Below, piece by piece: positions 37,447-61,026 of a stretch of 64,000 bases of DNA; position 1 is the stretch's first letter, and each line of letters starts with the position of its first letter. The notes below the pieces were generated by a model, which ran no database searches, was not told where the DNA came from, and saw only the letters and a program-made list of their open reading frames with translations. Position numbers and translations under genes: made by a program. Origin of the DNA: Candidatus Nanoarchaeia archaeon (GTDB lineage: Archaea; Nanobdellota; Nanobdellia; Pacearchaeales; GW2011-AR1); NCBI GenBank assembly GCA_028718805.1, contig JAQUKY010000006.1, forward strand, positions 1,927 through 65,926. The letters are read 5' to 3'.

Positions 37447-37458
37447 TGGCGGGGCTAT
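37447..37458 (+). repeat. att-like core, copy 2
   Basis: Exact TGGCGGGGCTAT. Confidence 0.9.
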
Positions 37459-37485
37459 CTATCATTAGGGTATATTGACGGAACT

Positions 37486-38244
37486 TTATTTTTTTGCGAG
37501 TTTCCACATCATTTGAAAATAAGCTTCGAAAGCTTCTTTTGCATTCCTACTTTTTAAAACAAAAAAAGTCATCTCTTTGGCAAGATTGATTATAACCTTA
37601 TCAGAATAAATGAGGAATATTGCAGGAGTGAGCATATTCTCTGGCATAAACTTAATTTCTACAGGAGGATATCTCTTAAATTCTTTTGCTAAATTTTTAG
37701 CATGATCATTAATAAGAAATTTAGCTTTAATCTTCTTGTCGGATCTTATTTTTTGAAAATAAAGTGCTAGAGGTAAAAACTCTTTTCCAAAATCATAAAC
37801 TCCCATAATATGAACTTCGTCTCCATTATTTAATTCATCAACTAGATTTGTAAATGCAGTCCTTATGCCCCTGTACCCCGAAAAGATAAATGATTCTTTT
37901 TCATCTTCTTTTTCCTGAGAAAAAGCCAAAAGGCTCGGTAAAAGCTCATTTACTTTTTTTTCTTGTTGTTCTATCTCTTTTTTCTTTTCATTAAGAAAAT
38001 TTAATATCATTTTGGGATTTGTTGCTTTGTAATGCTTAACATTTTCTTTTGTAAAATAACTCACTAACCCTTTTTGGATTAGCTTTTCTAAAACTTCGTA
38101 TACTTTAGAGTTAGCGGTTTTTGATTCGTTGATTATTGGCCCAGTTGAGGAAGAACCTAATTTTAGTAAAGAAAGGTACACTTTAATCTCAGACTGGTTT
38201 AATCCAATCTCTTCTAATTGTAATTCTATTTGTGATATGTCCAT
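37486..38244 (-). CDS. TrmB-family transcriptional regulator (C2)
   Basis: IGLNQSEIKVYLSLLKLG wHTH; FQMMWKLAKK end. Confidence 0.85.
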   Translation of the reverse strand: MDISQIELQLEEIGLNQSEIKVYLSLLKLGSSSTGPIINESKTANSKVYEVLEKLIQKGLVSYFTKENVKHYKATNPKMILNFLNEKKKEIEQQEKKVNELLPSLLAFSQEKEDEKESFIFSGYRGIRTAFTNLVDELNNGDEVHIMGVYDFGKEFLPLALYFQKIRSDKKIKAKFLINDHAKNLAKEFKRYPPVEIKFMPENMLTPAIFLIYSDKVIINLAKEMTFFVLKSRNAKEAFEAYFQMMWKLAKK

Positions 38245-38366
38245 AGATAAGTATCTTGTTATTGATATATAAACCTTTTCTTATTACCCCTACCTAAGGA
38301 GGGGATAATATATAAAAAGAAGGAGGTTGTTACTGTATCATAATAAATAAAACAGACAAAAACAAA

Positions 38367-39029
38367 ATGACAAGAGGAATACAAATATTGAAAGAAAATT
38401 ACGGAATGCCTTATGTACTTTTGAAAACATTCTACCAAGTTGGAGAAGGAATGCCAACAAGAGTTACTATCCATGGAAAATATAACATCCAAAATGAAAA
38501 GATAATTATTCCAAAGCCATTCTATGACTTACATGAGGATATTCTTAGAAGAGATGTTAAACCTAAAATTGCAGATTCTATCATAAAAAAAGGTTTCAAT
38601 GTTGCAACAGGGTTGGATGTATATGCTAAGCTTTACTTTATGTCTGAAACAATGAGTGGTAGTTTTCCAATGAATAGTTCTTATGTAATAAAACTGAATG
38701 AAGTTAAGGGATTGGGATTTCTTACAGAAGAAGGATATGCTGGAATGTTTAAAGAAGGTGCATTTACCTGGAGATTTGATAAAGAACATGTTGAGTATAT
38801 TGGAAAATCTTTAAACTTGCTTGATGAAAATTCAAGGGATAAATGGCCCGATTACAGGAGAATTGTTGAATTGCAAGAAAATTTGAAAAAGAGCGATTAT
38901 AAAGCACATGATTTACATAAAGATTTGTCTAATTTAACAACTAAAACCTCTATTCCCTCAAGAATTATAAGATTAGGAGACAATTCTGATTTAGCAAGCA
39001 GAGGACAGCTAGGCATATTCTCTTTTTAA
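38367..39029 (+). CDS. Hypothetical protein (C2 cargo)
   Basis: 220-aa ORF divergent from trmB. Confidence 0.6.
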   Translation: MTRGIQILKENYGMPYVLLKTFYQVGEGMPTRVTIHGKYNIQNEKIIIPKPFYDLHEDILRRDVKPKIADSIIKKGFNVATGLDVYAKLYFMSETMSGSFPMNSSYVIKLNEVKGLGFLTEEGYAGMFKEGAFTWRFDKEHVEYIGKSLNLLDENSRDKWPDYRRIVELQENLKKSDYKAHDLHKDLSNLTTKTSIPSRIIRLGDNSDLASRGQLGIFSF

Positions 39030-39052
39030 CTTATAGTCTATAAAATTAAATA

Positions 39053-39169
39053 TTTGTCACAGCAAGGTGGTCAGATGATTTTATATATAATCCAGAACTA
39101 AGATAATCAACTGAAATAAAAAAAGTTCTGGATTATACCAAGATGGTAGCAAGTCCTGGCGGGGCTATT
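39053..39169 (+). repeat. Shared cassette right-end module, copy 1 (includes core copy 3 at 39157-39168)
   Basis: 113/117 identical to 60910-61026; internal perfect 14-bp inverted repeat at 39086-39099 / 39124-39137. Confidence 0.93.
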
Positions 39170-39227
39170 ATTGAAAAGTAGTGTGCTCTTAATCGTGGTT
39201 TAATAGCAAGCCACAATAAGAAAGAGC

Positions 39228-39540
39228 ATGACTGACATACACAATTTAAATAGAAGATTAGAAGCAACATTGAGGAAAGTGGAAAATTCTTCTATTTCTG
39301 ATAAGAATAAAAAAGCAATTTTTGAGTTTCATAATTTTTGTTTTAGCGAGGGAATTGGGGCTGGAAAAATCCAAAGATATGTTTTTGACCTGGAGAAAAT
39401 AGTTAATCTTCTTAAGAAAGATTTTGATAAATGTAAGAGAGAAGATATTCAGAAAGTTTGTTGGTTTAATAGAAAAGCAAGGTTTCGAGCGACAAGGCTT
39501 TAGCCAGCGAGAAACCTTTAGGAGATTAATTGTGAAATGA
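39228..39540 (+). pseudogene. Truncated, frameshifted tyrosine integrase N-terminal domain
   Basis: DIHNLNRRLE...ISDKNKKAIFEF..FCFSEGIG..KIQRYVFDL...DFDKCKREDIQKV resembles archaeal XerA-like integrase N-termini as I recall them; removing one T near 39457 continues it as VGLIEKQG; no catalytic R-H-x-x-R-Y region follows. Confidence 0.7.
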
Positions 39541-40115
39541 GAGATAAAAATTATTTTCAACTGGATTTTTATGAAGATAAGGAAAGATTTGCAGATTGTT
39601 ATTCTTTAAACCAAATTAAAGACCATGCTAGAATTCAGTATCTTATAAAAAGAGGTTACAGCTTAACAAAACATTATGATTTAAGAATGAAAGAAGAAAT
39701 ATATTTAACAAAAAACCAGAAAACAGAAACTCCACAACATGCATTTTTGGTTTGGGCTTTACTAAAGTATCTAAGAGAGCAAAATTTTCAGGTCTGGAAT
39801 TACAAGACAATTAAGCCAGATATTATTTTTGAAGTTCAAAATAGAAAAATTGCTATTGAAATTGAGACTGGCAAGAATTTAAGGAATAATAGAAAGCAAT
39901 TTTTGGAAAAAATCAATTCACTTTATAAAAATTTTGGCTATAACTGGTTTTTTGTTGTGACAAACAGGGATTTAGTCAAGAAATATAAGAAGTATGGCAG
40001 GACTTACACAAGAAAAAATGTCATAAAAGCAATCTGGAGGTATGTTAATTTTAAGCCAAGAAATTACATGTTAAAACATCGGTTTTGGAAGGGGGGGATG
40101 CAATGGCATTTATAG
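39537..40115 (+). CDS. PD-(D/E)xK-like nuclease-fold protein
   Basis: KPDIIFEVQNRKIAIEIETG; ATGA overlap with the upstream frame. Confidence 0.55.
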   Translation: MRDKNYFQLDFYEDKERFADCYSLNQIKDHARIQYLIKRGYSLTKHYDLRMKEEIYLTKNQKTETPQHAFLVWALLKYLREQNFQVWNYKTIKPDIIFEVQNRKIAIEIETGKNLRNNRKQFLEKINSLYKNFGYNWFFVVTNRDLVKKYKKYGRTYTRKNVIKAIWRYVNFKPRNYMLKHRFWKGGMQWHL

Positions 40116-40177
40116 ACGGAAGAACTTTAAAAAAATACCGCAATTGACACCACATATAATAAAGGGCTAATTTTAAA

Positions 40178-40471
40178 CTAAAATCTCCTTGATATCCCCC
40201 ATTTTTTGCAAATATGGCAATTATTGCTGAAATCTCTTTTTTCAAATTTGCAAAACGTGCTGTTCTTTATAATATTGTTAAAATCCCTAAATTTCATTTC
40301 CTTTATTTCTAAATTATCAATTATTTTTTGAATGTTATCCTCGCACCTTTGTTTATATTCTTCTACAGGAAGCTCAAATTTTTTGCATTTCCAGCAATGC
40401 ATGGCAAAATACATCCCCTTAAGCCTTTTCAATGGCCATTTTGGCCTTTCTTTTATTTCTTGATTAGCCAT
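40178..40471 (-). CDS. Hypothetical Cys-containing protein
   Basis: CWKC and CHIC motifs; overlaps the dubious 5' extension of the opposite-strand ORF. Confidence 0.4.
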   Translation of the reverse strand: MANQEIKERPKWPLKRLKGMYFAMHCWKCKKFELPVEEYKQRCEDNIQKIIDNLEIKEMKFRDFNNIIKNSTFCKFEKRDFSNNCHICKKWGISRRF

Positions 40472-40504
40472 AAAGAATATATATCTATCAGGATATATAA
40501 ATTT

Positions 40505-41497
40505 ATGAGAGATATAATCCAGAGGCTTTTAGCAACAGATAACTCAAAGGAAAGAACAAAACTTCTGGAAAAATTTAGGGAATTTCAATTTGGCAAGAGT
40601 AGAAGAGAGACAGAAAATATTTTATTTGAGATATTTAAGGATGCCAAGCAAATGCTTGAAAATACTAAAGATAATGAGGAAAAAAGAGTTGCCCTAAGAA
40701 CATTAAATGCAATATTTCTTATTTACCCCTCTGAAACCATGGCAGAATTGCTCCAAGTTAAGGCTAAAGAAACTCCGGTTAAAGACAGGGATGTCATGGA
40801 AATAATTGACATTTGTTTGGAATTGCTGGAAGATAATGATGGAAATTTAAGGCTATCAGCTGCATATTTAATTGATCATTTAAGGGGATATATGCCTGAT
40901 TATAATTATGTTGATTTGTTTTATAATCTGCTTTCTTTAAAGAACTCTCCAAAAAACAAAGGCAAAAATAAGAAAACAATTGAATTTTGTTTAAGTAAAA
41001 TATTTTCTCCATTCCTTGAAGCAATTTTGGACGCAAGTTATCCTCTAGAGGTTAAAAAGATGAAAATAAGAGTTCATTCAAAAAATGAGAAGGTTATTAA
41101 CACTGCTATAGATGTCGAACATTTAGCAAATCAAATGGTATCTGAAACTGAAAAATATATTCAAAAAATTCTGGCAATAAGAGGAGAATATCTTCTTGAA
41201 GGCAATTTTATCCCTTACATAGAAAATATTGGTATTTTTCAGATCTTCTATGAAATGCAAAGGCTAAGAGAACTTTATTTAAAAGGAGAAATAAATAAAG
41301 AATTAATGAAAAATTATCTGAACAGCCGAATTTCTATTTTTGCGAATAATAGAATTGATATGCTTGATGGTCTTTCAGAAAGAGAAGAATTCTCATTGGT
41401 TTTAATGGATTTTAATAAGAATCTTGTTGTTAAAGATCTGCAGGAAACATATGATTTTTTAATAAAAATAAATTCTGTAATAGAAAATCTGAGTTGA
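40505..41497 (+). CDS. Hypothetical HEAT-repeat-like protein
   Basis: Probable ATG at 40505; helical repeats such as DNDGNLRLSAAYLI. Confidence 0.55.
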   Translation: MRDIIQRLLATDNSKERTKLLEKFREFQFGKSRRETENILFEIFKDAKQMLENTKDNEEKRVALRTLNAIFLIYPSETMAELLQVKAKETPVKDRDVMEIIDICLELLEDNDGNLRLSAAYLIDHLRGYMPDYNYVDLFYNLLSLKNSPKNKGKNKKTIEFCLSKIFSPFLEAILDASYPLEVKKMKIRVHSKNEKVINTAIDVEHLANQMVSETEKYIQKILAIRGEYLLEGNFIPYIENIGIFQIFYEMQRLRELYLKGEINKELMKNYLNSRISIFANNRIDMLDGLSEREEFSLVLMDFNKNLVVKDLQETYDFLIKINSVIENLS

Positions 41498-41625
41498 AAC
41501 ATATAAATTTTAATGCACATATCCAATAAATTACCTTCATATTCTTTGTTGCTAATGTGTTATCAGGATAATCCAAAGCTTTATATACCTCTGGTGTATA
41601 TTTATACAATAAAGGTGTATAATAA

Positions 41626-42213
41626 ATGATAACTAATAATGAGAGAAAGGTATTGAAGATGCTGTTGTATGCATTTGGCGAGAGTTATTCAATAAACCGC
41701 ATTGCAAAAGAATGTAAGCTAGCTCCAAATGGAGCATTAAAAATATTAAGAAAATTTGAAAAAGAGGGCATATTAGACTTTGAGAATATTGGAAATATGA
41801 AATCCTATAGCTTAAACTTTGAAGATGAAAAAACAAAGAATATTCTAAGATTAGCTTTAATTCCTGAGTTAAAAGCAAGGCTCAAATATCGGGCTGAGGA
41901 TTTAAAGCATTTGAAGGAATTTACAGAGGCTTGCATTATTTTCGGCTCCTATGCTGATTTAAGAAAAGAGCCAAATGATATAGATTTGTTTTTTATTGTT
42001 AAAAACAAAAAATTTAATGATTATAAAAAAGAAAGCCCTTTGGTTTATAAGACAATGCCTATTAAAGTTCATGATATCCTGCAGACAAATAAAGATGTTG
42101 CTGAAAATCTTAAGAAAAAAGATAAGGTAATTATAGAAATACTTAAAACAGGAATAATCCTATGGGGATATGACAAGATAATTAATATTATTGAAAATGG
42201 CTATAAAAAATAA
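41626..42213 (+). CDS. wHTH + minimal nucleotidyltransferase (MNT) antitoxin
   Basis: N-terminal HTH (SINRIAKECKLAPNGALKIL); IIFGSYA...NDIDLFFI GS-DxD motif. Confidence 0.8.
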   Translation: MITNNERKVLKMLLYAFGESYSINRIAKECKLAPNGALKILRKFEKEGILDFENIGNMKSYSLNFEDEKTKNILRLALIPELKARLKYRAEDLKHLKEFTEACIIFGSYADLRKEPNDIDLFFIVKNKKFNDYKKESPLVYKTMPIKVHDILQTNKDVAENLKKKDKVIIEILKTGIILWGYDKIINIIENGYKK

Positions 42214-42697
42214 GTTAAAAGAATGCATGAAAGAAGGCAAAAAGGGAGAAAGGCATAAAGGATTGAGGGAGATAGAACCTTCAATGAAAATTGCACAAGG
42301 ACATATCAGCAAGGCAATACATAACCTTAATGCAATAGACACTTTTCATGATGATGGATATTCAGACTGGAGTGCATCAGCTGCTTTTTACTGCTTGTAC
42401 CATTGTTTGCTCGCTGTAATCTCCAAAAAAGGCTTTGAGTCTAGAAATCAATCCTGTACTTTTGCATTGATTGAAAACATGATTGAGAATAATGGAATAA
42501 GCCTGACAAAAGAAGAGCTTAAAGAAATATTTGACAAAGATGTGACAGAAGATTTGAGCCATAGCGACAAAATTTTAGATATAAGGGAAAATATGCAGTA
42601 TTCAATTAAAACTGCATTAGAAGAGAAAGAGTTCCAGTTTTTAAAACAGAGAACAAAGTTCTTATTTGATAAATTAAGAAAAGAAGTTGAAAAGTGA
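42191..42697 (+). CDS. HEPN-domain protein (toxin partner)
   Basis: DWSASAAFYCLYHCLLA, SRNQSCT, IRENMQY; overlaps the MNT gene. Confidence 0.8.
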   Translation: MKMAIKNKLKECMKEGKKGERHKGLREIEPSMKIAQGHISKAIHNLNAIDTFHDDGYSDWSASAAFYCLYHCLLAVISKKGFESRNQSCTFALIENMIENNGISLTKEELKEIFDKDVTEDLSHSDKILDIRENMQYSIKTALEEKEFQFLKQRTKFLFDKLRKEVEK

Positions 42698-42790
42698 CAT
42701 CACCAAAAAATATAAATACAAGTGCCACTTTAGATAATTTTAATTGATTAATAACTAAAAAAAGAACACGCTACTTTCTGCCCTAGGCAC

Positions 42791-43870
42791 TGGCGGGGCT
42801 ATATACCTTTTTGGCAGATTTTGGGGATATGGACTTACCTTGAATTTATTATTCTCCTCGAGATTCAAGGCTATTTAAAGACTGCTACGGTGAGAGATAG
42901 AATATATTGTGTTGTTAATCATCTATTCGGAGAGCAGATATTGCTTGAAAATCTGGCTCGAACTCTAAGGATTTTTCATCTTCTCCCATATCAATCTTGG
43001 GATTTATCAAGAACTTAGCTATCTCCTTGCGAGCACATTTAGGTTTCATGTTTTTGACTTGGGGTGCTAGAGAAACCAATGCCTTGTAAGCATCATTTGT
43101 AAATGCAGCAAGATAATCCCACGCAGATTCAAACCTACCTAGGGAATCATAATTTTCAGAATGGCAAGTGGTAGTGGCTATTGAATACAATGCTCTAATT
43201 TTCTGGTCACCAGGCAATTTTTCTATTACACATATAAAACCGCTTATATAATCTGCAATTAAACTGTCTTCACGAACTTTGTCATCTTCTTCAATGTAAT
43301 CAAAGTGATAACGCCAAATATTGTTAAATTTTCTTAGCCAGCCATTTGACTCTGGAGAAGATACTGCCATTTGTAAAACTGAAGCAAGATTTGATATATA
43401 TTCAAATGAATGCACTCTTGTATCTATTTCCCTAAGCCCTTCTTTAACTTTTTTATTAAAGTAATCAACCGTATTAGAGAAATTTATATCTGCATTTTCA
43501 TTTGGTTTTACTGGAACAACTGATTTGGAAAAATCTTCTCCATTTGAACAAAGACCTTCAAGCCCTTTGTAACATAATACTCGCTGGCTCATATTGATAT
43601 TAGGGAATTAAGTTAGACTATTTAACATTTATTATAATCAAATAATACATTCAAATAGTTCTGTGTTTTACCCTGTTAATATTTCCTAACGATATATTTT
43701 TTAGATTTTTCCTTCTAGGATTGTCATCTCTCATTGCTTTTATGGGGGTGTATCTTCATATTTATCGATGGTAAACTAAGCTTTTATATCTCTGGTATAA
43801 GAGCTATATCATAGCCCCTTGAATCTGTTTAAAAGTTCTAGTCTTGGCGGGGCTATATACCTTTTTGGCA
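42791..43870. mobile_element. Cassette C4, bounded by a 26-bp direct repeat
   Basis: TGGCGGGGCTATATACCTTTTTGGCA at 42791-42816 and 43845-43870; weak inverted repeat (21/30) at 42803-42831 / 43810-43839. Confidence 0.75.
42915..43592 (-). CDS. Hypothetical protein (C4 cargo)
   Basis: 225-aa ORF without a recognisable motif. Confidence 0.6.
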   Translation of the reverse strand: MSQRVLCYKGLEGLCSNGEDFSKSVVPVKPNENADINFSNTVDYFNKKVKEGLREIDTRVHSFEYISNLASVLQMAVSSPESNGWLRKFNNIWRYHFDYIEEDDKVREDSLIADYISGFICVIEKLPGDQKIRALYSIATTTCHSENYDSLGRFESAWDYLAAFTNDAYKALVSLAPQVKNMKPKCARKEIAKFLINPKIDMGEDEKSLEFEPDFQAISALRIDD

Positions 43871-43919
43871 TAAAATTCTTTCATAAGTTTTATAAGCATT
43901 CTAAGTTTAATCTTATAAA

Positions 43920-44789
43920 ATGGTGAATGAATTATTTTTAGCAGAGAACTGGTTTTTGATTATCTTAGGATTAATTTGGGTTATTGGGGCAGTTCTCCAA
44001 GATATGAAGAGGAGGGAAGTTGATAACTTATGGAATTTTAGCTTAATTGCTTTTGCACTTGCTTACAGAATTGCTGTCTCTATTTTTATTAATAATTATT
44101 GGTTTGCTTTTAATGGTTTAATTGGATTGTTAATATTTTTGGCTTTAGGCAATCTATTCTATTATGCAAGATTATTTGCAGGGGGAGATGCCAAGCTTAT
44201 GATTGCTTTAGGAACAATCCTTCCTCTAAGTTATTCGTGGATTATTAATTTTAAAATTTTTGGATGTTTTATTTTATTGTTTTTGTTAGGAGGAAGCATT
44301 TATGCTTTGATATACTCTTTTTGTCTGATAATAATTAATTGGAAGAGTTTTAAAAAGGAATTTGTAAAACAATGGAATAATTATAAAAGATTGTTTTTGA
44401 TAGCATTAATTTTTGCTTTAGCCTGGGTTTTAATTGCTTTTTTTATTAGTCAGACAATTATGGTTTTAATTGGATTAATTGTTTTATTATTCCCTGTTTT
44501 GTATATTTTTGCAAAAGCTGTTGAAGAAAGCTGTATGATAAGATTAGTTAAGCCAAACAAGGTTACAGAGGGGGATTGGCTGTATAAAGATATTAGAATT
44601 GGAAACAGATTAATAAAAGCAAATTGGGAGGGTGTTACTAAAAGAGAATTAGAATTAATAAAAAAAGGCAATAAAAAAGTTTTGATTAAATATGGAATAC
44701 CATTCACCCCAAGCTTTTTATTTGGGTTGGTTGGTTTGTTGTTTTTAGCTTGGATGTGGTTCTTTATTCTAAATTTAATCTTTTGGTAA
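43920..44789 (+). CDS. Prepilin peptidase (A24, PibD/ArlK/EppA-like)
   Basis: QDMKRREVDN and GGDAKL catalytic Asp motifs; C-terminal EGDW...EG...PFTP domain. Confidence 0.88.
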   Translation: MVNELFLAENWFLIILGLIWVIGAVLQDMKRREVDNLWNFSLIAFALAYRIAVSIFINNYWFAFNGLIGLLIFLALGNLFYYARLFAGGDAKLMIALGTILPLSYSWIINFKIFGCFILLFLLGGSIYALIYSFCLIIINWKSFKKEFVKQWNNYKRLFLIALIFALAWVLIAFFISQTIMVLIGLIVLLFPVLYIFAKAVEESCMIRLVKPNKVTEGDWLYKDIRIGNRLIKANWEGVTKRELELIKKGNKKVLIKYGIPFTPSFLFGLVGLLFLAWMWFFILNLIFW

Positions 44790-44805
44790 TCTGATAAACG
44801 ATTTT
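44781..44805 (+). repeat. Dispersed intergenic repeat family, representative copy
   Basis: TTTTGGTAATCTGATAAACGATTTT identical to 61272-61296; related copies at 8171, 19682, 23283, 47933, 51274, 55397, 56855, 61758 (+) and 21481, 32012, 34514 (-). Confidence 0.75.
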
Positions 44806-44868
44806 AGCACTTCCTTTTATTTAACTCGAAGATTATAGGATTATTAGTGAGATAAAAATTTTTATCCT

Positions 44869-45525
44869 TTAAGGTATTCTGAAAGAAATTTTTTGCAGAC
44901 TTTTTATAGATTCTTTTGTAATCGCGGTTTTATCTGTTGTTTTCTTCTGCCTTGGGCTTCTCTTTTTTGTTTCTAATATCAACTGCAGCTCTTTTAATTC
45001 TGATTCCTCTGCCTTATGTTTTTCTAATTTTTTATCTTTATAAAAAGGTATGACATTAATTATAGCGTGTCCCTGAGCTGATGCAGTTTCTATTTTAACA
45101 TCCTCTGCATTTAATTTCTTTTTTATTTTTTTTGCTGTTCTTTGAGCCAAGCTTAATGAGGATTTTGGAAGTTTTTCTATTGTAGTGTGTTCGTTTGGGA
45201 TTACTATGGTATGCCCCCTTGATATTGGATTTATTTCAAGGATTGCAGTTGCCTTTTTGTTCTCTGCTATTCTGTAAGAAGGCACATGGTTGCTTATGAT
45301 AGAGCAAAAGATGCATTGGGTTGCCTGTCCTCCTTGAGCAGTCTGATTTAATTGTCCTTCTTCTGAAAGCTGTATCTTATTTTGTTTTAAGAATTCTTCT
45401 AATTGTTCTTCGTCGAGATTTGTTACATACTCTTTAATCTGCTCTTTATTCTCCATTTCAGAGGATTCTATCTGCTGGAGAAGCTGTTTTTTTATTTCTT
45501 CTGCTTGTTCAGGGGTTATTGCCAT
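44869..45525 (-). CDS. HIT-family protein with degenerate histidine triad and acidic N-terminal extension
   Basis: CIFCSII, EINPISRGHTIVIP; triad region reads QGHAIINVIP. Confidence 0.75.
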   Translation of the reverse strand: MAITPEQAEEIKKQLLQQIESSEMENKEQIKEYVTNLDEEQLEEFLKQNKIQLSEEGQLNQTAQGGQATQCIFCSIISNHVPSYRIAENKKATAILEINPISRGHTIVIPNEHTTIEKLPKSSLSLAQRTAKKIKKKLNAEDVKIETASAQGHAIINVIPFYKDKKLEKHKAEESELKELQLILETKKRSPRQKKTTDKTAITKESIKSLQKISFRIP

Positions 45526-53357: not shown

Positions 53358-53410
53358 GAGGGAGGGATTACTAAGTGATTTAAAAGCCTTGTTGTAAGAG
53401 AAAATATATT

Positions 53411-54136
53411 TTAATGTTTAACTTTTTCAAGCTCAAACTCGCAGTTTTGCTTTTTTGCCTGCTGTTCAATTTCTTCTGTTACTTTGTTAATATCTGATTT
53501 TATCTGCTTAAAATCTGGTCCGTGTATTTTTAGATTATATTTTCCTGCTGCAATGTAAGAAACATCGCATTTTGAATTTTTGCATGCATTATCTATTATC
53601 TCTTTTACAATCTTCATGCCATTGGAAGATTTGCTTGAGAGTTTTATTATATTCTTTACCTCTTTTGGTTTTTCTTTTTTTGATTCGATAATCTTTATTA
53701 TCTTTTCAGCATCTTCTTTTTTGAAATACTTGTTTAAAATTTTAGGATTCTCCCTTAATTCTTCAAAAAAATTTGTTAAGCTTTGTTCTTTAGTTATTTC
53801 TTTCACTATTTTTTCAGCTTCTTCTTTTCCTATAACTGTTTTTATTATTGCCTTATAATTATTTTCTTTTTCTATTTTATCCAAAAGTTCCTTTCTCTCA
53901 TTTTGCTTGACTCTTCTTAAGGACAATTGAATTCTTCCATTTTTCAAACTTATTATCTTGCAAACAATTTTCTTTCCAGGAACAACATAATCCCTTAAAT
54001 TTCTTATTCTTCCAGGAGCTATTTCTGAGGTGGTTATTGTCCCTTCCCAATTATCTTCGATTTTTACAAATACGGTTGTTCCAACTACTTTATCTACAGT
54101 ACACAATAAGATTTCTCCTTCTTCGAATTCTTCCAT
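53411..54136 (-). CDS. eif2a: Translation initiation factor aIF2 alpha
   Basis: S1 domain EEGEILLCTV...SEIAPGRIRNLRDYV...LSLRRV; YIAAGKY; probable ATG at 54136. Confidence 0.9.
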   Translation of the reverse strand: MEEFEEGEILLCTVDKVVGTTVFVKIEDNWEGTITTSEIAPGRIRNLRDYVVPGKKIVCKIISLKNGRIQLSLRRVKQNERKELLDKIEKENNYKAIIKTVIGKEEAEKIVKEITKEQSLTNFFEELRENPKILNKYFKKEDAEKIIKIIESKKEKPKEVKNIIKLSSKSSNGMKIVKEIIDNACKNSKCDVSYIAAGKYNLKIHGPDFKQIKSDINKVTEEIEQQAKKQNCEFELEKVKH

Positions 54137-54228
54137 ACTGGAAGAATTAGGTTTTATTTTATAAAGGTTGCTATTCTTTCTTTTCACAAAAGAAATATAG
54201 ATTAGAAGTTTTGAAGTTAAAAAGTTGG

Positions 54229-55041
54229 TTATTTTTTTATCTCTTTTAATATTTTATCTATTATCTCAGAATAAGAATATACTGGAAGACCCAATTCTTT
54301 TAATTTATCTTGTTTTCCTATTACTACGGGGGATTTATCTTTATTATCTACAGAAACAACTTCAATATTAAATTTAGATAATATATCTTTTGCAATATCA
54401 AATCTTGTTTTTAACTCAGGAGCTGAAATAGGTATAATCTCCTTATTTATCTTATTTTTGATTATAAGTTCTATAGTTTCAGAGATATGCCCCAAATATG
54501 TTGGCTGAAATTTCCAAGAGGTATCATAAATAGCGGGAGTTTTTTCTGTGATATTCTTTAATATCCTGTTAAATGGCCGGTCATTAGTTGTATTTGGACT
54601 CAGCCCCATAACTAAAGAAGGTCTTAGAATAACAAATCCTTTTTTTGTATTTTTAACATAATTTTCAGAGGCTAATTTTGTTTTCCCATAGACATTTATG
54701 GGGGCAGCCACTCTGTCTGAAGATATAAATATTATTTTCGCGTTTATTAAATTAGCAGCCTCAACAATATTTTTTGTTCCATTTTCATTAATACCTTTTG
54801 CAAGCTTTTGATTTTGTTCACACCAACGGGCGTTAGGATTTGCAGCCACATGAATAATTATCTCTGGTTTAATCTTTTTAATAATTTCAATAACTTCTTT
54901 AGAATTAGTTATATCTAATTTAATTAATTCCTTGAATAATTTGTTTTTATTATAAGTTCCAGTAACATTAAACTTATTTCTTAAATCGCTATATATTCTT
55001 GCACCAACATAACTGCTTGCCCCAATGATTAATATCTTCAT
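54229..55041 (-). CDS. RmlD-like NAD(P)-dependent sugar-nucleotide reductase (extended SDR)
   Basis: MKILIIGASSYVG, LDIT, IIHVAA, ISSD, YGKTK; the upstream extension in the ORF track overlaps S27e and is probably not translated. Confidence 0.82.
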   Translation of the reverse strand: MKILIIGASSYVGARIYSDLRNKFNVTGTYNKNKLFKELIKLDITNSKEVIEIIKKIKPEIIIHVAANPNARWCEQNQKLAKGINENGTKNIVEAANLINAKIIFISSDRVAAPINVYGKTKLASENYVKNTKKGFVILRPSLVMGLSPNTTNDRPFNRILKNITEKTPAIYDTSWKFQPTYLGHISETIELIIKNKINKEIIPISAPELKTRFDIAKDILSKFNIEVVSVDNKDKSPVVIGKQDKLKELGLPVYSYSEIIDKILKEIKK

Positions 55042-55188
55042 TTTAGGTAAATCTATTTGTTTTTCCATTTCTTCTTTGAATTTATCTCTCTTGATAATTA
55101 TTCTTTTCGCTTTTAAATACCTTTGTTTGATAATTTGAATATTAGTCATTTTCGAAGGTTTTAAAAACCCCTCTCTATCTATTTTCTT

Positions 55189-55362
55189 ATGAAAGCTAAA
55201 ACTAGATTCATTAAAGTAAGATGCCAGAGTTGTAAGAATGAGCAAATTATATTTGAAGGGGCAACAACAAAAGTTCAATGCTTAGTTTGCAATGCAATAA
55301 TCGCAGAACCAAAAGGCGGTAAAGCAGATATAAAAGCAAGAATTGTTGAGGTTCTGAACTGA
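55189..55362 (+). CDS. rps27e: 30S ribosomal protein S27e (57 aa), not in ORF track
   Basis: RFIKVRCQSCKNEQIIFEGATTKVQCLVCNAIIAEPKGGKA. Confidence 0.93.
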   Translation: MKAKTRFIKVRCQSCKNEQIIFEGATTKVQCLVCNAIIAEPKGGKADIKARIVEVLN

Positions 55363-55491
55363 TAATACCCTTTCTCATTAATTTCTAATTTATCTCAGTA
55401 ATTTATTAAACGATTTTAAGCTTTGCAGACGAGCAGATTTTGTTGGGGGTATTATCCATTTAGAATTATTAATATCCATTTGAACTGATTC

Positions 55492-56823
55492 TTACACCTT
55501 TATCACTTCAAACTCCAGTTTTCTTTGGATTAACTCTATGAATTTATCTTCGTCATCTTTTTTTATTGTGCAGCCTGCAGCATTGTGATGCCCGCCTGAT
55601 TTCCCACCTATTGTTTTGATTATCGAATCTATTATTTCTTTTAAATTTCTATTTGATCTTGTTCTTCTTCCTGCTATTCTTGTTGATACTTTTATTTTAT
55701 CACCGTTGTATGCCATTGCTACAATTACTGTTCCTTGCTTGTATATTGATGAAAATGAGAGGATGCTTGCAAGGGTTCCTATTAATGTATCTTTGATATT
55801 ATCTTTTGCGTTTATTATTACATATTCTCTGCCTTCTATTTTGTCATTTTGGTCAATAAACCTCAGGCCAGAAATTATATGCTGCCTGTATTTCAAATAG
55901 ATTCTTTCTGCTTTTTTTCTTGCATACGGATTTCCCATGCAGAACAAGAATGCTATCTGCGGGAAACCCATCCTGCTGCAGGCATTTATTATAGCTGACA
56001 ATTCCCTTGCATCTTCAATTTTGTTGAAGAATTTGACAAGATAAAGATTCCCTATGCATTCTGTAGCATCTTCCTGAGAAAGTCTAAGCAAAAAAACGGT
56101 AGTTAATCTTTTCATTTCTTCATCATTTAGATCTATCAAGGACTTGTAACATTTTCCGATTTTTTCAATTCCTGCTTCTTCTAGAAGACTTATCGCGCCT
56201 AGGTAGTTCCCCGTTGCTCCGGGTATAAAAGGTCTTGAGCTAAATTCAATTATTTTATCTAGGGGTCTTGTTGAAGGATAGAGCAAAAGCCCCTTTTTTA
56301 CTTTTACAGTGGACTCTTTTATTATTATGTCTCTTGTTTTATTTATTTCTTTTTCCATTGTGTCTCCTACCATACCTATAATTGCCAGATAAGCAAGAGA
56401 GGCATTTTCTTTTGAAATCTCCCTTGATATAAGATATACAAGTTCTGAAGTGCATAATTCCTCATAATTCTTTAATAAATGGGGGTTGATTATATTCATA
56501 TTCTCTGGGACTTCTGTTATTTCTATTTCGTGATGATCAACTACAAAAATATTAGTTTTTAATTTGGATAAGTTTTCTATGTTGTTTGAACCTAAATCTA
56601 ATAAAAGGATTGTTCTATCTTCTGGGAATAAATTGATTTCTTCTTCATTAAGTTGCTTGATAATCTTGATTGAGAATTGCTTGTTTAACTTCCTTAAGGT
56701 TTTCGAAAAAATTGCTGCAGAAGTAATTCCGTCTGTGTCATAATGACTGATCAGGTGTATTTTTTTGTCATCAATTTTTCTTAAAAATTCTTTTGTAAAT
56801 CTTTCCACTTCTTTTAGTATCAT
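55492..56823 (-). CDS. RecJ-like DHH/DHHA1 phosphoesterase
   Basis: HYDTDG, LLDLG, VVDHH, GGHHNAAG; next to rps15 as is common in archaea. Confidence 0.85.
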   Translation of the reverse strand: MILKEVERFTKEFLRKIDDKKIHLISHYDTDGITSAAIFSKTLRKLNKQFSIKIIKQLNEEEINLFPEDRTILLLDLGSNNIENLSKLKTNIFVVDHHEIEITEVPENMNIINPHLLKNYEELCTSELVYLISREISKENASLAYLAIIGMVGDTMEKEINKTRDIIIKESTVKVKKGLLLYPSTRPLDKIIEFSSRPFIPGATGNYLGAISLLEEAGIEKIGKCYKSLIDLNDEEMKRLTTVFLLRLSQEDATECIGNLYLVKFFNKIEDARELSAIINACSRMGFPQIAFLFCMGNPYARKKAERIYLKYRQHIISGLRFIDQNDKIEGREYVIINAKDNIKDTLIGTLASILSFSSIYKQGTVIVAMAYNGDKIKVSTRIAGRRTRSNRNLKEIIDSIIKTIGGKSGGHHNAAGCTIKKDDEDKFIELIQRKLEFEVIKV

Positions 56824-56950
56824 CTTCAGTCTCTTTTTGTCACTAATCTTTTTTAGTAATATAATAAACGATTTTGAGTTATGTTTGAGCAGCTTAACCC
56901 TCTCAATATCCCTTTAATTCGTTTTGTTTATTATCAATATAAGGGGCTAT

Positions 56951-57307
56951 TTAAGCTTCTAGATAGTCTTTTACTTTCTTTAATTTGGCCTTTGCTCTTA
57001 TTAAAGATATATCCGCTTTCTTGTCTTGTTTGTTGTTTTTATAGTGTCCTTCTATTCTATCTGCTCTTTTTTGCAGATTTATCAATGAAGGTTCTGTAAA
57101 TTTGTTTTTTTCTTTTAAAACCCTGCCTATCTTTATATTGTAGATTTTTGTTTTCGGTATTCCATACTGGTCTCTTAAAGTTAAGCCTATTTTTTCAGAA
57201 GTTAATCCTTTGTCAGCTAGTTTTAAGATTATTTCTTTTACTTCTTCTTCAGTATATTTAAGCCACACGGGCTTTTCTATTTTTTCTGTTTTCTTTGCTT
57301 TTGGCAT
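56951..57307 (-). CDS. rps15: 30S ribosomal protein S15 (uS15)
   Basis: PVWLKYTEEEV..II..L..KG...KIGLTLRDQYGIP; H.KNNKQDK. Confidence 0.9.
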   Translation of the reverse strand: MPKAKKTEKIEKPVWLKYTEEEVKEIILKLADKGLTSEKIGLTLRDQYGIPKTKIYNIKIGRVLKEKNKFTEPSLINLQKRADRIEGHYKNNKQDKKADISLIRAKAKLKKVKDYLEA

Positions 57308-57411
57308 GATAATTGGTTGTAATTTTGGTTTTTAAACTTATTTATTACAGATATAAATATGCCGTTTAGTGGTCAAGATAAATTTATAAACTTTAGAGTT
57401 TAATCTTTTAA

Positions 57412-58308
57412 ATGAGATTGTTGATGGAAAAAGGAAAGCAGAAAGAATTGCTTAAAAAAGAAAAAGAAAAACGCAAATTAACCTGGAGCAAATTTGCTTT
57501 AATATTGAATATAAGACCCTCTAAGCTAAAAACTTTCTTTAATGAGGAGGTTTTAATGGACAGTTTAACTTTTAATAAATTATTTTTAAAAAAAGAATAT
57601 AAAAAGTTTATTGTGAAAAAATTAGAGAATAACTGGGGGCAATCAAAAGGCGGAAAAAATTCAGATGGTAATTTAAAAGAGATTAAAATTCCGAAGAGAG
57701 CAGAAGAATTAGCAGAGCTTTGGGGAATTCTGCTCGGAGATGGAAATATACAAAAAACTTCTGGATATAAGCTAGGAACATATACTATAAAGGTTACTGG
57801 ACATTCTATATTAGATAGAGAATATCTTATTAAATTTGTTGAACCTTTAATCAAAAATTTGTTTAATGTTAAGATAAGAATATATGAATCAAAGGTTAGT
57901 AACGCACTTAATGTTATTGCAGATAGCAGGAGAATTATTGACTTTTTTGAGGAGAATGAGTTCAAAGCAGGAGATAAAATAAGAAATCAGGTTACAATTC
58001 CTAGTTGGATAAGAAGTAACCATAAATTTTTAGCTGCCTGTTTAAGAGGGCTGTATGATACTGATGGATCTTTTTATAGATTAGGAAACCAGAATAGTTA
58101 CCAGATTAATTTTAAAAATCTTAATAAAACTCTTTTAAAAGACGTTCATGATAGTTTAATTAGTTTGGGTTTAAGCCCTTCAAAAATTAGTGGAAGTATC
58201 CAGATATATATAACAAAAAAATCTGAAATAGCAAAATTTTATAAATTGATTGGATTTCACAATCCTAAGCACCTTAACAAAATAAGAGCTTATTTTAAAG
58301 CCCTGTAG
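57412..58308 (+). CDS. Stand-alone double-motif LAGLIDADG endonuclease-like protein
   Basis: LWGILLGDGNI and LRGLYDTDGSF motifs; N-terminal HTH-like segment; stop codon lies within the tRNA. Confidence 0.8.
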   Translation: MRLLMEKGKQKELLKKEKEKRKLTWSKFALILNIRPSKLKTFFNEEVLMDSLTFNKLFLKKEYKKFIVKKLENNWGQSKGGKNSDGNLKEIKIPKRAEELAELWGILLGDGNIQKTSGYKLGTYTIKVTGHSILDREYLIKFVEPLIKNLFNVKIRIYESKVSNALNVIADSRRIIDFFEENEFKAGDKIRNQVTIPSWIRSNHKFLAACLRGLYDTDGSFYRLGNQNSYQINFKNLNKTLLKDVHDSLISLGLSPSKISGSIQIYITKKSEIAKFYKLIGFHNPKHLNKIRAYFKAL

Positions 58309-58371
58309 TGTAGCGGTCAAGCATTCGGCCCTTTGGAGGCTGAGACCTCGGTTCGAATCCGAGCAGGGCTA
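58299..58371 (+). tRNA. trnQ: tRNA-Gln(UUG), no encoded CCA
   Basis: Cloverleaf: acceptor AGCCCTG/CAGGGCT (A1-U72), anticodon arm CGGCC-CTTTGGA-GGCTG, T arm CTCGG-TTCGAAT-CCGAG. Confidence 0.97.
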
Positions 58372-58399
58372 TCTATCATTATGATATATTGACGGAACT

Positions 58400-59116
58400 T
58401 TATTTCTTTGCGAGTTTCCATAAAGCATTAAACTGGCTTCTAAGAGAATTCGCAATTTCCTTATTTTCGGTAAGTATTGCATAATAAGGAGAAGTCCATA
58501 TAAAATTAGCTACTTTATTTCCATAGACCGCTATTGTTACAGGAGACAGGTATTCTTTAGGCAAATATCTAAACTCAGAATTCTTTGAACTTACTACTAT
58601 TCCTCTTAAATCTTCCCTAACCAAGACTTTTTCATGGATATTATTTTTTACAATTTGATTTAGGAACTGGTGTATGTCTATAGGAAGAACCTGCTGAAAT
58701 CTTCCCTCTTCTCCAAATGCAACATAGTCTTTTTTTGTCCTGATAAGGTCTTTTAATACTGCTTTTAATCCTTCCTTGCCTCTGAATATCTCAACTCTTG
58801 TTTCTTCTTCTTTGGCTTTTGTTAAATTAATAAGCTCTGGCATTACCTCTTGCAATTTTAATTCTTTTTCTTTTAAGTCCTGCAATAATTTTTTGGGATT
58901 AGCAGAAGAAAAGTATTTTACATTATTCTTAATAATGTATGAAACCAATCCTTTTTCAATCAGCTTATTTGTTAACTGATAAATTAAAGTTCTGTCTAAA
59001 TTTGTCTTTTCTGATATTTTTGTAGCAGTGGTTTCTCCTAGCTGAAGAAGGGCAAGGTAAACCTTGCATTCTTTTTCTTCCAATCCCAAATCCTGCAAAA
59101 GCTTTGTCAGTTCCAT
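58400..59116 (-). CDS. TrmB-family transcriptional regulator (cassette B)
   Basis: LGLEEKECKVYLALLQLG; IFRGKEG; FNALWKLAKK. Confidence 0.85.
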   Translation of the reverse strand: MELTKLLQDLGLEEKECKVYLALLQLGETTATKISEKTNLDRTLIYQLTNKLIEKGLVSYIIKNNVKYFSSANPKKLLQDLKEKELKLQEVMPELINLTKAKEEETRVEIFRGKEGLKAVLKDLIRTKKDYVAFGEEGRFQQVLPIDIHQFLNQIVKNNIHEKVLVREDLRGIVVSSKNSEFRYLPKEYLSPVTIAVYGNKVANFIWTSPYYAILTENKEIANSLRSQFNALWKLAKK

Positions 59117-59153
59117 TATAACAATAGAGAATCCTTATTTATAAATTTATTTA

Positions 59154-59176
59154 TTGTTGTTATTTAATCACAACAA
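59154..59176. promoter_or_regulatory. Palindrome TTGTTGT-N9-ACAACAA, putative TrmB operator
   Basis: 7-bp inverted repeat in the divergent promoter region. Confidence 0.5.
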
Positions 59177-59208
59177 ATCTTTAAGTAGTATCTCGTTACT
59201 ATTGGTTT

Positions 59209-59874
59209 ATGGTAAATACAAGAAGTTCGTGTTGTTATGCAAGCGAGAGAGAAGCCACACTATATGGGGCTTTGGCAGAATTAGATGTAAATAAAAAAAG
59301 AGAGCCTGCTCTTATTAAAGTAGTCAAATCTTTTGACTTGTCAATTCTTGATTATGTTAAACCAATCAATAGAAGTCTTCTAGAAATTCAGAATAATTAT
59401 TTACAAAGCGGGAAAAAGGCTAAACATAGAATTGAGGATTATTGGGACAGCAAAGAAATTGATTCTTTTAATGGGTTAGTTAATTGCCTAAATCTCGAAT
59501 CTGACGATTGTGATGCAGTTAGAAAAGGCAAGGTCTTCATAAAAAAGGGAAAAGTGAATGTAATTCCTACTTGCGGTTGGGGGGGAGGAAAATCAAGCGA
59601 TGAGGCAATTAATGGAATGATTTTTGGGGCCGTGTTGGGCGGGGTTTTTTCGTCATTAGGTCAGGCATTTTACCAGATAATCAAAGGAAACTCTATTGAT
59701 ACTTTTAATGTTTATTCTATAGGAAGAACAGCATTGATTGGGGGTTTGATTGTAGGATATATTTTTAGTAGAGGGATGTATATAGAGAGTGCTTTAGTAA
59801 ATCCCTTTGAAAGGATTGCATCAGGACTTGAACAAAGAGCAGATTATGTTTCTAAAAATATATTGGAGTATTAA
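59209..59874 (+). CDS. Hypothetical membrane protein (cassette B cargo)
   Basis: Two Gly-rich hydrophobic segments near the C-terminus. Confidence 0.6.
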   Translation: MVNTRSSCCYASEREATLYGALAELDVNKKREPALIKVVKSFDLSILDYVKPINRSLLEIQNNYLQSGKKAKHRIEDYWDSKEIDSFNGLVNCLNLESDDCDAVRKGKVFIKKGKVNVIPTCGWGGGKSSDEAINGMIFGAVLGGVFSSLGQAFYQIIKGNSIDTFNVYSIGRTALIGGLIVGYIFSRGMYIESALVNPFERIASGLEQRADYVSKNILEY

Positions 59875-59876
59875 AA

Positions 59877-60443
59877 ATGAAATTTAAAAAATTAGTTATA
59901 GGAACTGGAATTGCAGGAGGGCTTGCAGCAATAGTTTTAGGAGGAATTTCTTTGTTTGGGGGGTGGGGGAGTAGGGGAACAAGTGTTGAAAAATGTATTG
60001 GACATTTTAATAGAAAATCTATAGATATTGTAAAAGAAGACATAAGGTTTGGACCAGATCATAAGTATGTGATGATTGATAATAGAGACATAATAGTAGA
60101 TGGTATCATAAAATCAGATGAGGGAAAATATCTTAACATCAGTTCTGGTGCCAGAGTTTTAGTATCTTATGAACCTCGGATATATTCGTTTGTTGAGTAT
60201 TATAAAAAACAACGACTTGAGTCTTTTAAATATTTAGAAAGCAAGGCTGAAATTGATATTTGGGAGAGTACGAGTACGGGATATCCAGCTTATCTATTTG
60301 AAGTAGGACTTGGGTGCATGTGTGTTAAAAAAGGAGCAATAACAAATGATGCGGGAGATAGAGTCTATATTGGAGATGGGTATTTTATAAGACCTGGCAG
60401 TCAAAATAAAGATTCTAATTCTGTTAAGGAGAAAGTAAAATGA
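59877..60443 (+). CDS. Hypothetical exported protein (cassette B cargo)
   Basis: N-terminal signal/anchor. Confidence 0.6.
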   Translation: MKFKKLVIGTGIAGGLAAIVLGGISLFGGWGSRGTSVEKCIGHFNRKSIDIVKEDIRFGPDHKYVMIDNRDIIVDGIIKSDEGKYLNISSGARVLVSYEPRIYSFVEYYKKQRLESFKYLESKAEIDIWESTSTGYPAYLFEVGLGCMCVKKGAITNDAGDRVYIGDGYFIRPGSQNKDSNSVKEKVK

Positions 60444-60751
60444 ACAAAGAAGATATGATTAGTTTTGGGGTGCTTACAGTTATAGCCTTGGCCACATCTA
60501 TGGGTTTTGTCTCGGTTATGAAATATGCCTTAAATCGTAATGGAAAAGAGGCTTTAAATCTTCCACAAAACTCTAACATTAAACAGATTTCACGGCCTGA
60601 AGATTATAATAATGATGGAATATTAGATTATATTGTAAAATATAGAGATGGTAAATCTAAAATTTTTTATGGTAGAGGGTATGATGAAAGAGATATTGAA
60701 GGTAAGGTAGAATGGTACGACTTTGGATCTAGGGCGAGAATCTTAAAATAG
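60440..60751 (+). CDS. Hypothetical membrane-anchored protein with DxNxDG loop
   Basis: N-terminal TM; DYNNDGILD Ca-binding-like motif; ATGA overlap. Confidence 0.6.
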   Translation: MNKEDMISFGVLTVIALATSMGFVSVMKYALNRNGKEALNLPQNSNIKQISRPEDYNNDGILDYIVKYRDGKSKIFYGRGYDERDIEGKVEWYDFGSRARILK

Positions 60752-60770
60752 AATTAAAATTATTTTAAAA

Positions 60771-60908
60771 ATGCAATCAAAACAATTCACCATCACAGAA
60801 AGAATAGCTAAACATGGCAGTCAAGCTATAATTGTAATTCCAAAGATTCTAGAAGATAATCTAAAACCGGGAATTTTGACTCAAGTAACTATTGAAATAC
60901 TAAGTTGA
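60771..60908 (+). CDS. Small AbrB/SpoVT-like (swapped-hairpin) protein (45 aa), not in ORF track
   Basis: MQSKQFTITERIAKHGSQAIIVIPKILEDNLKPGILTQVTIEILS; G-x4-IVIPK pattern. Confidence 0.6.
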   Translation: MQSKQFTITERIAKHGSQAIIVIPKILEDNLKPGILTQVTIEILS

Positions 60909-60909
60909 T

Positions 60910-61026
60910 TTTGTCACAGCAAGGTGGTCGGATGATTTTATATATAACTCAGAACTGAGATAATCAACTGAAATAAAAAAAGTTCTGGATTATACCAAGA
61001 TGGTAGCAAGTCCTGGCGGGGCTATT
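60910..61026 (+). repeat. Shared cassette right-end module, copy 2 (includes core copy 6)
   Basis: 113/117 identical to 39053-39169. Confidence 0.93.

Follow-up and report, generated by a model that had tools for sequence, protein, structure and literature searches.

The stretch of DNA analyzed here (the window) comprises 64,000 nucleotides (nt) from the genome of a Candidatus Nanoarchaeia archaeon (contig C6:1927-65926). The source assembly (G000) measures 1.18 Mb at 31% G+C in 18 contigs, among them C5, C6, C8, and C10. We examined two short cassettes in the window, C2 (37447-39168, 1.7 kb) and B (58361-61025, 2.7 kb), that have nearly the same ends and different contents. C2 is the second of four cassettes that form an array spanning 7.2 kb. 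B lies directly 3′ of a tRNA gene, and its left edge falls inside the 3′ end of tRNA-Gln(UUG). Both cassettes carry a minus-strand gene for a TrmB-family regulator and plus-strand cargo between conserved ends that include inverted-repeat arms next to a short core (Table 1).

The ends of C2 and B were compared by repeat search and pairwise alignment. Identity amounts to 93% over 58 nt for the left ends (37449-37506 and 58363-58420) and to 96% over 120 nt for the right ends (39053-39172 and 60910-61029); the matches described in an earlier reading of the sequence alone, 52/55 at 37452-37506 and 58366-58420 and 113/117 at 39053-39169 and 60910-61026, were thereby reproduced. The boundaries of the matches are sharp. 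The right-end match begins with TTTGTCACAG, whose start lies one base past the stop codon of a 45-amino-acid (aa) gene in B, and it stops at the core; the six last trmB codons shared at the left end correspond in part to a C-terminal motif of the whole paralogue family, F..LWK.AKK. The two copies of the ends, both on one contig, differ at 4 + 4 positions. No complete copies were found elsewhere in the assembly, so that C2 and B are the sole full ones, and one decayed left end of this type is present on contig C5 (~38311-38332). The interiors of the two cassettes share no DNA similarity. An Rfam scan of the whole window returned tRNA only, and the ends thus hold no known RNA. The 120-nt right end was also considered as half of a split or intron-containing tRNA; this idea was rejected, as the T-arm is absent, ARAGORN and Rfam are silent, and the internal hairpin is not kept in the copy of B (z-score of -1.95 versus 0.07).

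Table 1. Features of cassettes C2 and B, their surroundings, and related sites on other contigs of the source genome (positions refer to the window unless a contig is named; ORF, open reading frame)
Feature	Position	Strand	Remarks
Left core of C2	37447-37458	+	Identical to tRNA-Gln(CUG) 3′ end
Left arm of C2	37459-37495	+	Inverted repeat with 39114-39149
Conserved left end of C2	through 37506	+	Includes left arm
TrmB-family regulator of C2	37486-38244	-	252 aa; Pfam TrmB (PF01978), E 7.2e-15
Sole cargo ORF of C2	38367-39029	+	220 aa, soluble, no known family
Conserved right end of C2	39053-39156	+	Right arm 39114-39149 and spacer CAAGTCC
Core common to C2 (right) and next cassette (left)	39157-39168	+	
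tRNA-Gln(UUG), attB target of B	58299-58371	+	ARAGORN; Rfam tRNA, 60.6 bits
Hybrid attL core of B	58361-58372	+	GAGCAGGGCTAT; only GGGCTAT in common with element-borne core
Left arm of B	58373-58409	+	37-nt imperfect inverted repeat with 60971-61006
Conserved left end of B	through 58420	+	Includes left arm; 93% identical to C2 left end
TrmB-family regulator of B	58400-59116	-	238 aa; Pfam TrmB (PF01978), E 2.2e-16
Cargo operon of B	59209-60908	+	ORFs of 221, 188, 103, and 45 aa
Conserved right end of B	60910-61013	+	96% identical to 39053-39156; right arm 60971-61006; 7-nt tRNA-like spacer CAAGTCC
attR core of B	61014-61025	+	TGGCGGGGCTAT; followed by chromosomal bud32-type kinase gene (kinase domain matches)
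First cassette of array	36645-37446		Core and 226-aa ORF on minus strand; own inverted-repeat arms
Decayed integrase-bearing element	39169-42790	+	Truncated integrase, two unknown ORFs, nucleotidyltransferase/HEPN pair
Fourth cassette	42791-43856		End family 2; 225-aa ORF on minus strand; closed by last core 43845-43856
Core positions, window	36645, 37447, 39157, 42791, 43845, 61014	+	Exact-match search
Core positions, C8	39366, 42619, 44448		
Core positions, C10	43695 (tRNA itself), 23553, 19328, 17067, 15207		
Mosaic TrmB module, first segment	C10:25638-26518, C5:80163-81040		97% identity
Mosaic TrmB module, second segment	C10:24373-25019, C5:79166-79812		87% identity

The cargo of the two cassettes is unrelated, as the sequence-only reading had stated: no similarity was detected between C2 and B cargo, and no cargo ORF of either matched a family in Pfam, NCBIfam, or PHROGs. 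That reading had also described three membrane or exported ORFs in B. Of these, the 188- and 103-aa ORFs have clear N-terminal membrane segments, and hydrophobic stretches in the 221-aa ORF are weaker. Divergent intergenic regions of 122 nt in C2 (38245-38366) and 92 nt in B (59117-59208) separate the regulator gene from the cargo.

The 12-nt core, TGGCGGGGCTAT, equals the 3′ acceptor strand and discriminator base of tRNA-Gln(CUG), encoded on contig C10 (43683-43758), together with the next base; it thus consists of 11 bases of tRNA-Gln and one base beyond the tRNA. The window contains six exact copies, all on the plus strand. When up to two mismatches were allowed, 7 matches were found versus 1.2 expected, and none of 100 shuffled sequences reached 7. 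Genome-wide, about 14 copies (exact or with one mismatch) are distributed over three arrays, and the 3′ ends of the other tRNAs of the source genome have at most one extra copy each. C2 is flanked by two copies of the tRNA 3′ end, with an intact tRNA at neither flank.

At B, the two junctions can be read directly from the sequence. The tRNA-Gln(UUG) gene ends with ...CCGAGCAGGGCTA, and the right boundary of B reads ...GTCCTGGCGGGGCTAT; the junctions are GAGCA|GGGCTAT on the left (attL) and TGGCG|GGGCTAT on the right (attR). The left copy is native tRNA through GAGCA, the right copy is an element-type core, and the flanking copies (GAGCAGGGCTAT versus TGGCGGGGCTAT) differ at 3 of 14 positions. 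The hybrid left junction places the crossover within the last 7 bases, GGGCTAT, and is what a reciprocal exchange of the tRNA gene with a site on the element would be expected to yield; target-site duplication is thereby ruled out. The sequences of these junctions point to an origin of B through site-specific recombination.

C2 and B each have a left arm of 37 nt directly behind the left core (CTATCATTAKGRTATATTGACGGAACTTTATTT...), an imperfect inverted repeat of the 36-nt right arm, which stops 7 nt short of the right core (AAATAAAAAAAGTTCTGGATTATACCAAGATGGTAG). Those 7 nt, the spacer CAAGTCC, are similar to CGAATCC of the tRNA, so that the tRNA-like stretch amounts to ~19 nt, and conserved right-end sequence continues for a further ~70 nt beyond the arm. 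We scored inverted repeats for 11 cassettes of the genome. Left and right arms of the same cassette gave a mean of 20 and cross pairs gave 13.6 ± 3.1, with high cross-pair scores between sister cassettes only. Joining the right end, core, and left end of C2 or B reconstructs an attP-like site of ~166 bp. In some relatives, units of only 70 to 143 nt lie between cores behind tRNA-Gln, and in G036 an "empty" 70-nt unit between cores is a bare hairpin of two arms.

To what extent ends and contents travel together was read from the regulators and from a second family of ends. Both TrmB proteins possess the N-terminal TrmB winged-helix domain. The N-terminal half of the C2 protein is TrmBL2-like (TrmBL2 in the PDB, E of 7.5e-4, residues 5 to 118), and the length of the two proteins (238 to 252 aa) resembles that of TrmBL2; the C-terminal sugar-binding domain of TrmB proper was not detected in either protein, Pfam and NCBIfam being silent past about residue 118. 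The two proteins are 30% identical and fall on opposite sides of the main split of a 24-protein TrmB tree (support, 89/95), in agreement with their earlier description as distant paralogs, and the TrmB beside the decayed left end on C5 takes a third position. The proposed comparison of the TrmB phylogeny with the ends therefore yields a conflict between the TrmB tree and end identity. End family 2 has members in the window (42791-43856), on C8 (42619-44459), and on C10 (17067-15196); they share ~100 nt on the left and ~46 nt on the right (83 to 93% identity), and their interiors are unrelated and free of TrmB. This family was not found in other species of the genus. As the same ends enclose TrmB genes of different clades in C2 and B and unrelated interiors in end family 2, the conserved unit is the attachment site.

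TrmB itself is not part of this unit. The source genome encodes 23 TrmB paralogues, all at most 41% identical to the copy of C2 or B (the closest matches reach 41% and 39% aa identity), and about 10 divergent TrmB/operon/small-gene modules, most of them outside cassettes. Modules of TrmB, cargo, and small gene are also found in other genomes, with or without tRNA-type repeats. Since end family 2 lacks TrmB and the modules mostly lack these ends, the "TrmB scaffold" of the sequence-only reading does not belong to the chassis. Its wider proposal, a mobile chassis with swapped modules, stands insofar as the ends are separable from the cargo, by the evidence of TrmB clades and end family 2; it does not stand as a free-standing chassis, the ends being attL and attR halves of a tRNA-Gln-directed integrase site and no recombinase being encoded. 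A role of the TrmB protein as the recombinase was considered and dropped, given the 23 paralogues mostly outside cassettes and the absence of TrmB from end family 2. C10 and C5 share one TrmB module in which 881 nt at 97% identity adjoin 652 nt at 87%, a mosaic that shows ongoing recombination among TrmB modules. This duplication is recent, and one of its boundaries lies exactly at the trmB stop codon.

Comparison with relatives, which carry the labels Nanoarchaeota, Pacearchaeota, or Woesearchaeota, identified the array containing C2 as an insertion. In related species of the genus whose fetched stretch includes both genes, the pilin-like gene (36003-36455) has a homologue ~0.4 to 0.75 kb upstream of that of the prepilin peptidase gene (43920-44789), and no core-like sequence lies between them. 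In the window, they are separated by 7.5 kb, 7.2 kb of which belongs to the four-cassette array. At the site of B, genome G064 has the same gene order (DHH, S15, LAGLIDADG, tRNA-Gln(UUG), and then Bud32) with a different cassette of 1033 nt between tRNA-Gln(UUG) and a second core, which the Bud32 homologue follows.

No recombinase ORF was found in C2 or B (ORF lists and Pfam). The two cassettes are thus unable to move alone and must depend on an integrase encoded elsewhere. One candidate family is represented beside C2: a truncated integrase ORF of 91 aa (39228-39503) starts 60 nt past the core that closes C2 and covers the N-terminal ~78 residues of a family of ~395-aa tyrosine integrases, whose intact members start 60 to 75 nt after tRNA genes in relatives. 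Across 78 aa, it shares 92% identity with an intact 396-aa integrase encoded in GCA_030692865.1, and the same core precedes both. At the DNA level, the window and that genome agree at 90% across 332 nt that include the core; the window then lacks ~3.8 kb, so that 39169-42790 is an integrase element with an internal deletion. The locus in GCA_030692865.1 starts with an identical tRNA-Gln(CUG); behind it come a TrmB gene on the minus strand, genes for an ABC transporter and two methyltransferases, the 45-aa gene, a second core, and finally the intact integrase. A scan of contigs with the ~395-aa family found mostly tRNA-Ser-linked members and none at tRNA-Gln.

The second candidate is encoded on contig C10, where an intact 384-aa tyrosine recombinase (42430-43581) starts ~100 nt after tRNA-Gln(CUG). 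A six-frame genome search with PF00589 had missed it, and it was located as the ORF behind this tRNA; its PF00589 match (33.8 bits) is above the cut-off, and it weakly matches archaeal XerA (PDB 4a8e). Of 301 genomes in the taxonomic family, 87 have relatives of this integrase (60 to 77% identity) beside tRNA genes or tRNA 3′ fragments, and their elements share a motif past the tRNA end (T..TAYC.TTTTG, 5 to 8 nt, TGGG). We built a left-arm profile from 19 arms of this integrase family, taken solely from other genomes. Six of its 28 matches in the window lie right beside cores in the correct orientation; among them are the top match (42804-42828), in the left arm of the fourth cassette, and, more weakly, matches in the C2 left arm and the B right arm. 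The profile matches link the cassette arms to the C10 integrase family, loosely so for C2 and B. A search for integrases in viral contigs found none.

Taken together, these data are best accommodated if C2 and B are integrase-less integrative cassettes of one attachment-site family, similar to cis-mobilizable elements (CIMEs) or satellites and stacked at tRNA-Gln-type sites, which we consider probable. Under this interpretation, excision of a cassette as a circle would join its right end, core, and left end into the ~166-bp attP-like site, in which an inverted repeat surrounds ~19 nt copied from the tRNA 3′ end. Recombination of this site with a tRNA-Gln gene or with a core copy already in place would be carried out by a tyrosine integrase acting in trans, and repeated insertion would stack cassettes into arrays. 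The 384-aa integrase behind tRNA-Gln(CUG) on C10 and the family of the truncated integrase beside C2 are the candidate enzymes. The cargo would be a regulator-plus-operon module (TrmB, variable genes, and often the 45-aa gene) of the kind common genome-wide, and different modules could come to lie between the same ends by recombination among paralogous modules or by uptake from a shared cassette pool. The sequences themselves demonstrate the anatomy of the cassettes, the derivation of the core from a tRNA, the hybrid junction, the presence of integrases, the insertion as compared with other species, and the mismatch of ends and cargo; from these we infer present mobility of C2 and B, a role of one of the candidate integrases, and an exchange of cargo by one of these routes.

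Several observations weigh against this interpretation. The ends of C2 and B were not found in other species representatives of the genus, and BLAST of both end families against 48 to 60 relatives, to which the sequence-only reading had looked for the same ends around other contents, returned trivial short matches only; since these ends are confined to the source genome, the combination of the same ends with further cargo is documented there only. Exact-pattern scans of metagenome contigs gave 0 matches, whether to the right arm with its core or to a reconstruction of the empty tRNA-Gln(UUG)/bud32 site. The left arm of C2 and the right arm of B match the arm profile weakly, at ranks 17 and 27. 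The left edge of the array with C2 lacks an intact tRNA; this array is one of two, among the three of the genome, with no intact tRNA at the edge. Finally, the distance from arm to arm across the core is 19 to 28 nt, depending on the cassette. Characterized tyrosine recombinases have 6 to 8 bp between core-type binding sites, so this wider and more variable distance is left unexplained by the usual core-site geometry.

Integrons offer an alternative model, in which lineage-specific sites become attached to arbitrary genes and a resident integrase shuffles the cassettes by acting on folded hairpins of their own inverted repeats. Integrons have short cassettes in arrays, a recombinase encoded outside the cassette, and near-identical sites on unrelated genes within a genome, and chromosomal integrons have species-specific attC families. 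C2 and B are likewise short arrayed cassettes with an external recombinase and shared ends on unrelated genes. The arrays of one- to four-gene units with a single core between them, the two end families confined to the source genome and attached to unrelated cargo, the variation of arm sequence and spacing across cassettes with arm complementarity kept, and the hairpin-only unit of G036 would all suit such a gene-capture platform. However, an IntI-type integrase, the attI/Pc arrangement, and the attC architecture are absent: the core is a tRNA 3′ end rather than GTTRRRY, and the inverted repeats enclose the cargo and do not form a compact attC. No integrase heads the arrays in the window, that of C10 is located within the first element, behind the tRNA, and decayed and intact integrase elements in the same arrays fit ordinary tandem accretion. 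Unlike integron cassettes, C2 and B bring their own regulator, divergent from the cargo, and a divergent promoter region. We therefore regard an integron-like platform as unlikely.

The cassettes might instead be immobile relics, derived from one ancient TrmB cassette that was duplicated and whose interiors were overwritten by gene conversion, leaving defunct ends. Several features suit this account: the cassettes contain no integrase, donors could have come from the many paralogues of TrmB and of the 45-aa gene, the C10/C5 mosaic resembles a conversion-like exchange, the left boundary of end identity falls inside conserved 3′ codons of trmB, and a third left end on C5 has decayed. Yet the genome holds no TrmB donor close enough to the copies of C2 and B, the ends are 93 to 96% identical over their full length with their inverted-repeat geometry kept, and B occupies a genuine tRNA gene with a recombination-type hybrid junction where other species have different cassettes; we judge the relic account improbable. 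A terminal inverted repeat (TIR) transposon that duplicated a 12-bp target, or an assembly artifact that copied one end module, is very improbable indeed. TIRs and a flanking direct repeat do superficially resemble a transposon with its target-site duplication, and the repeats are short enough, in principle, to mislead an assembler. The transposon was rejected on the hybrid junction of B: the flanking copies differ, the right one is an element-type core, and no identical duplicated target abuts the TIRs. In addition, the right arm stands 7 nt off the core, separated by the tRNA-like spacer, and a transposase is absent. Against an artifact, the end copies differ from one another on a single contig, and their outer flanks agree with synteny elsewhere.

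The arrangement that we favor, integrase-less cassettes at tRNA-Gln-type sites, has counterparts among known systems. Tyrosine integrases are known to build tandem genomic islands at tRNA genes, with the "Islander" signature (PMC4383910). As in those islands, an intact tRNA and displaced 3′ fragments mark the ends, successive insertions stack, and the integrase adjoins the tRNA in autonomous members (the C10 element and that of GCA_030692865.1). B shows the intact tRNA and the 3′-end repeat of a tRNA-targeting element, and neither C2 nor B has an integrase of its own. Unlike Islander islands, these cassettes are only 1.7 and 2.7 kb long, lack an integrase, and retain a full two-sided site, and two of the three arrays are tRNA-less. 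CIMEs are integrase-less, att-flanked elements of streptococcal integrative and conjugative elements (PMC5704250). C2 and B resemble them in being flanked by att sites and in lacking genes for integration or transfer, so that movement is expected only with help, and C2, like CIMEs, lies in tandem with an integrase-bearing element, the decayed one beside it. They differ from CIMEs in their archaeal host, in the unrelated integrase families, in that conjugation is not involved, and in that several cassettes with one end pair carry different cargo.

Tycheposons of Prochlorococcus (bioRxiv 10.1101/2020.12.28.424599) are a further parallel in layout: a streamlined genome carries cargo elements at tRNA genes, older elements are pushed inward, and partial tRNAs and fragmented integrases are left behind. 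Tycheposons carry their own recombinase, whereas most units here lack one. The integrase of plasmid pTN3 rearranges Thermococcales chromosomes via tRNA-gene fragments (PMC5495485), a known route by which segments are moved or inverted between scattered tRNA-type sites. Rearrangement is not demonstrated here, and pTN3 serves as an analogy only; by this analogy, recombination of the pTN3 type could explain the tRNA-less arrays. Full-text literature searches turned up no account of cassettes of this kind from DPANN archaea.

How accessory genes are acquired and turned over in the host-dependent DPANN archaea, with their tiny genomes, is poorly understood. The locus offers a concrete route, in which att-bounded cassettes with regulated genes for surface proteins or proteins of unknown function would pile up at tRNA-Gln-type sites. 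Conservation of the attachment site rather than of the genes provides a defined ~166-bp substrate for biochemistry. The choice of target may be encoded in the DNA. The C10 integrase family (loci L070-L099) extends over 70 of 191 genera at 60 to 77% identity and sits at various tRNAs (Gln, Asp, Glu, Ser, and Arg). Sister integrases (support, 100/99) at tRNA-Glu and tRNA-Asp suggest that the target is set by the element-borne tRNA-like core and not by the protein, which, if confirmed, would bear on integrase specificity. A more speculative extension, which we think rather doubtful, would be a cassette economy in the Pacearchaeota/Woesearchaeota group of DPANN archaea that serves as integrons do but has different parts: short integrase-less cassettes with a complete attP made of cassette-specific inverted arms around a copied tRNA 3′ end, a very conserved tRNA-adjacent tyrosine integrase that inserts, stacks, and exchanges them in trans, a target set by the core, and ends reused for different modules.

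The left edges of the tRNA-less arrays (36612-36644 in the window and C8:39335-39365) carry a similar stretch of ~30 nt before the first core, ending in the degenerate T-arm-like sequences GGTTATAACCC and GTCTGAACCC. Upstream of integrase starts of the ~395-aa family, GTGGTTTAATAGC (39195-39207 in the window), often palindromic with CAC, recurs at a distance of 20 to 40 nt in many genomes and is likely a promoter or operator. The overlapping nucleotidyltransferase (Polbeta) and HEPN genes of the decayed element (41626-42697) form a toxin-antitoxin-type module by their Pfam matches, and a similar pair is present in the tRNA-Gln cassette of GCA_030692865.1. At the B site, a LAGLIDADG-type ORF (57412-58308, 298 aa, PF14528) has its end 9 nt within the 5′ end of tRNA-Gln(UUG) and is kept at the same position in G064 with 70% identity.

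The 45-aa gene, which the sequence-only reading had called AbrB-like, has 15 copies in the source genome. Their proteins are 70 to 80% identical, versus at most 41% for their TrmB partners. No match to the 45-aa protein was found in Pfam, NCBIfam, or PDB sequences, AbrB, MazE, and SpoVT included. Among 5.8 billion proteins it has only 35 homologues, all unnamed. Its AlphaFold2 model has a predicted local distance difference test score of 83, and the best, weak fold matches are dimeric RIFT-barrel proteins (E of 1.7, probability 0.21). Contig C5 holds 13 copies of the TrmB and 45-aa gene families, and a third TrmB gene of the window is located at 23833-24525. In another lineage (loci L113-L115, ~2640-2860), a module of TrmB, two ORFs, and a small gene is followed by two repeat units of ~115 nt, each with a GGTGGCTAT core and a shared downstream arm; these may be analogous att-type repeats with a different core.

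The cassette array splits a pilus locus, parting the pilin-like genes from the prepilin peptidase. The small pilin-like genes (33025-36455) have near-identical 5′ ends, with a 28-nt repeat at 33025, 34556, 35082, and 35668. Two direct-repeat pairs near the start of the window (1821-2110/4086-4375, 290 nt, 93%; 2543-2736/4766-4959, 194 nt, 100%) are spaced by ~2.2 kb and are unrelated to the cassettes.

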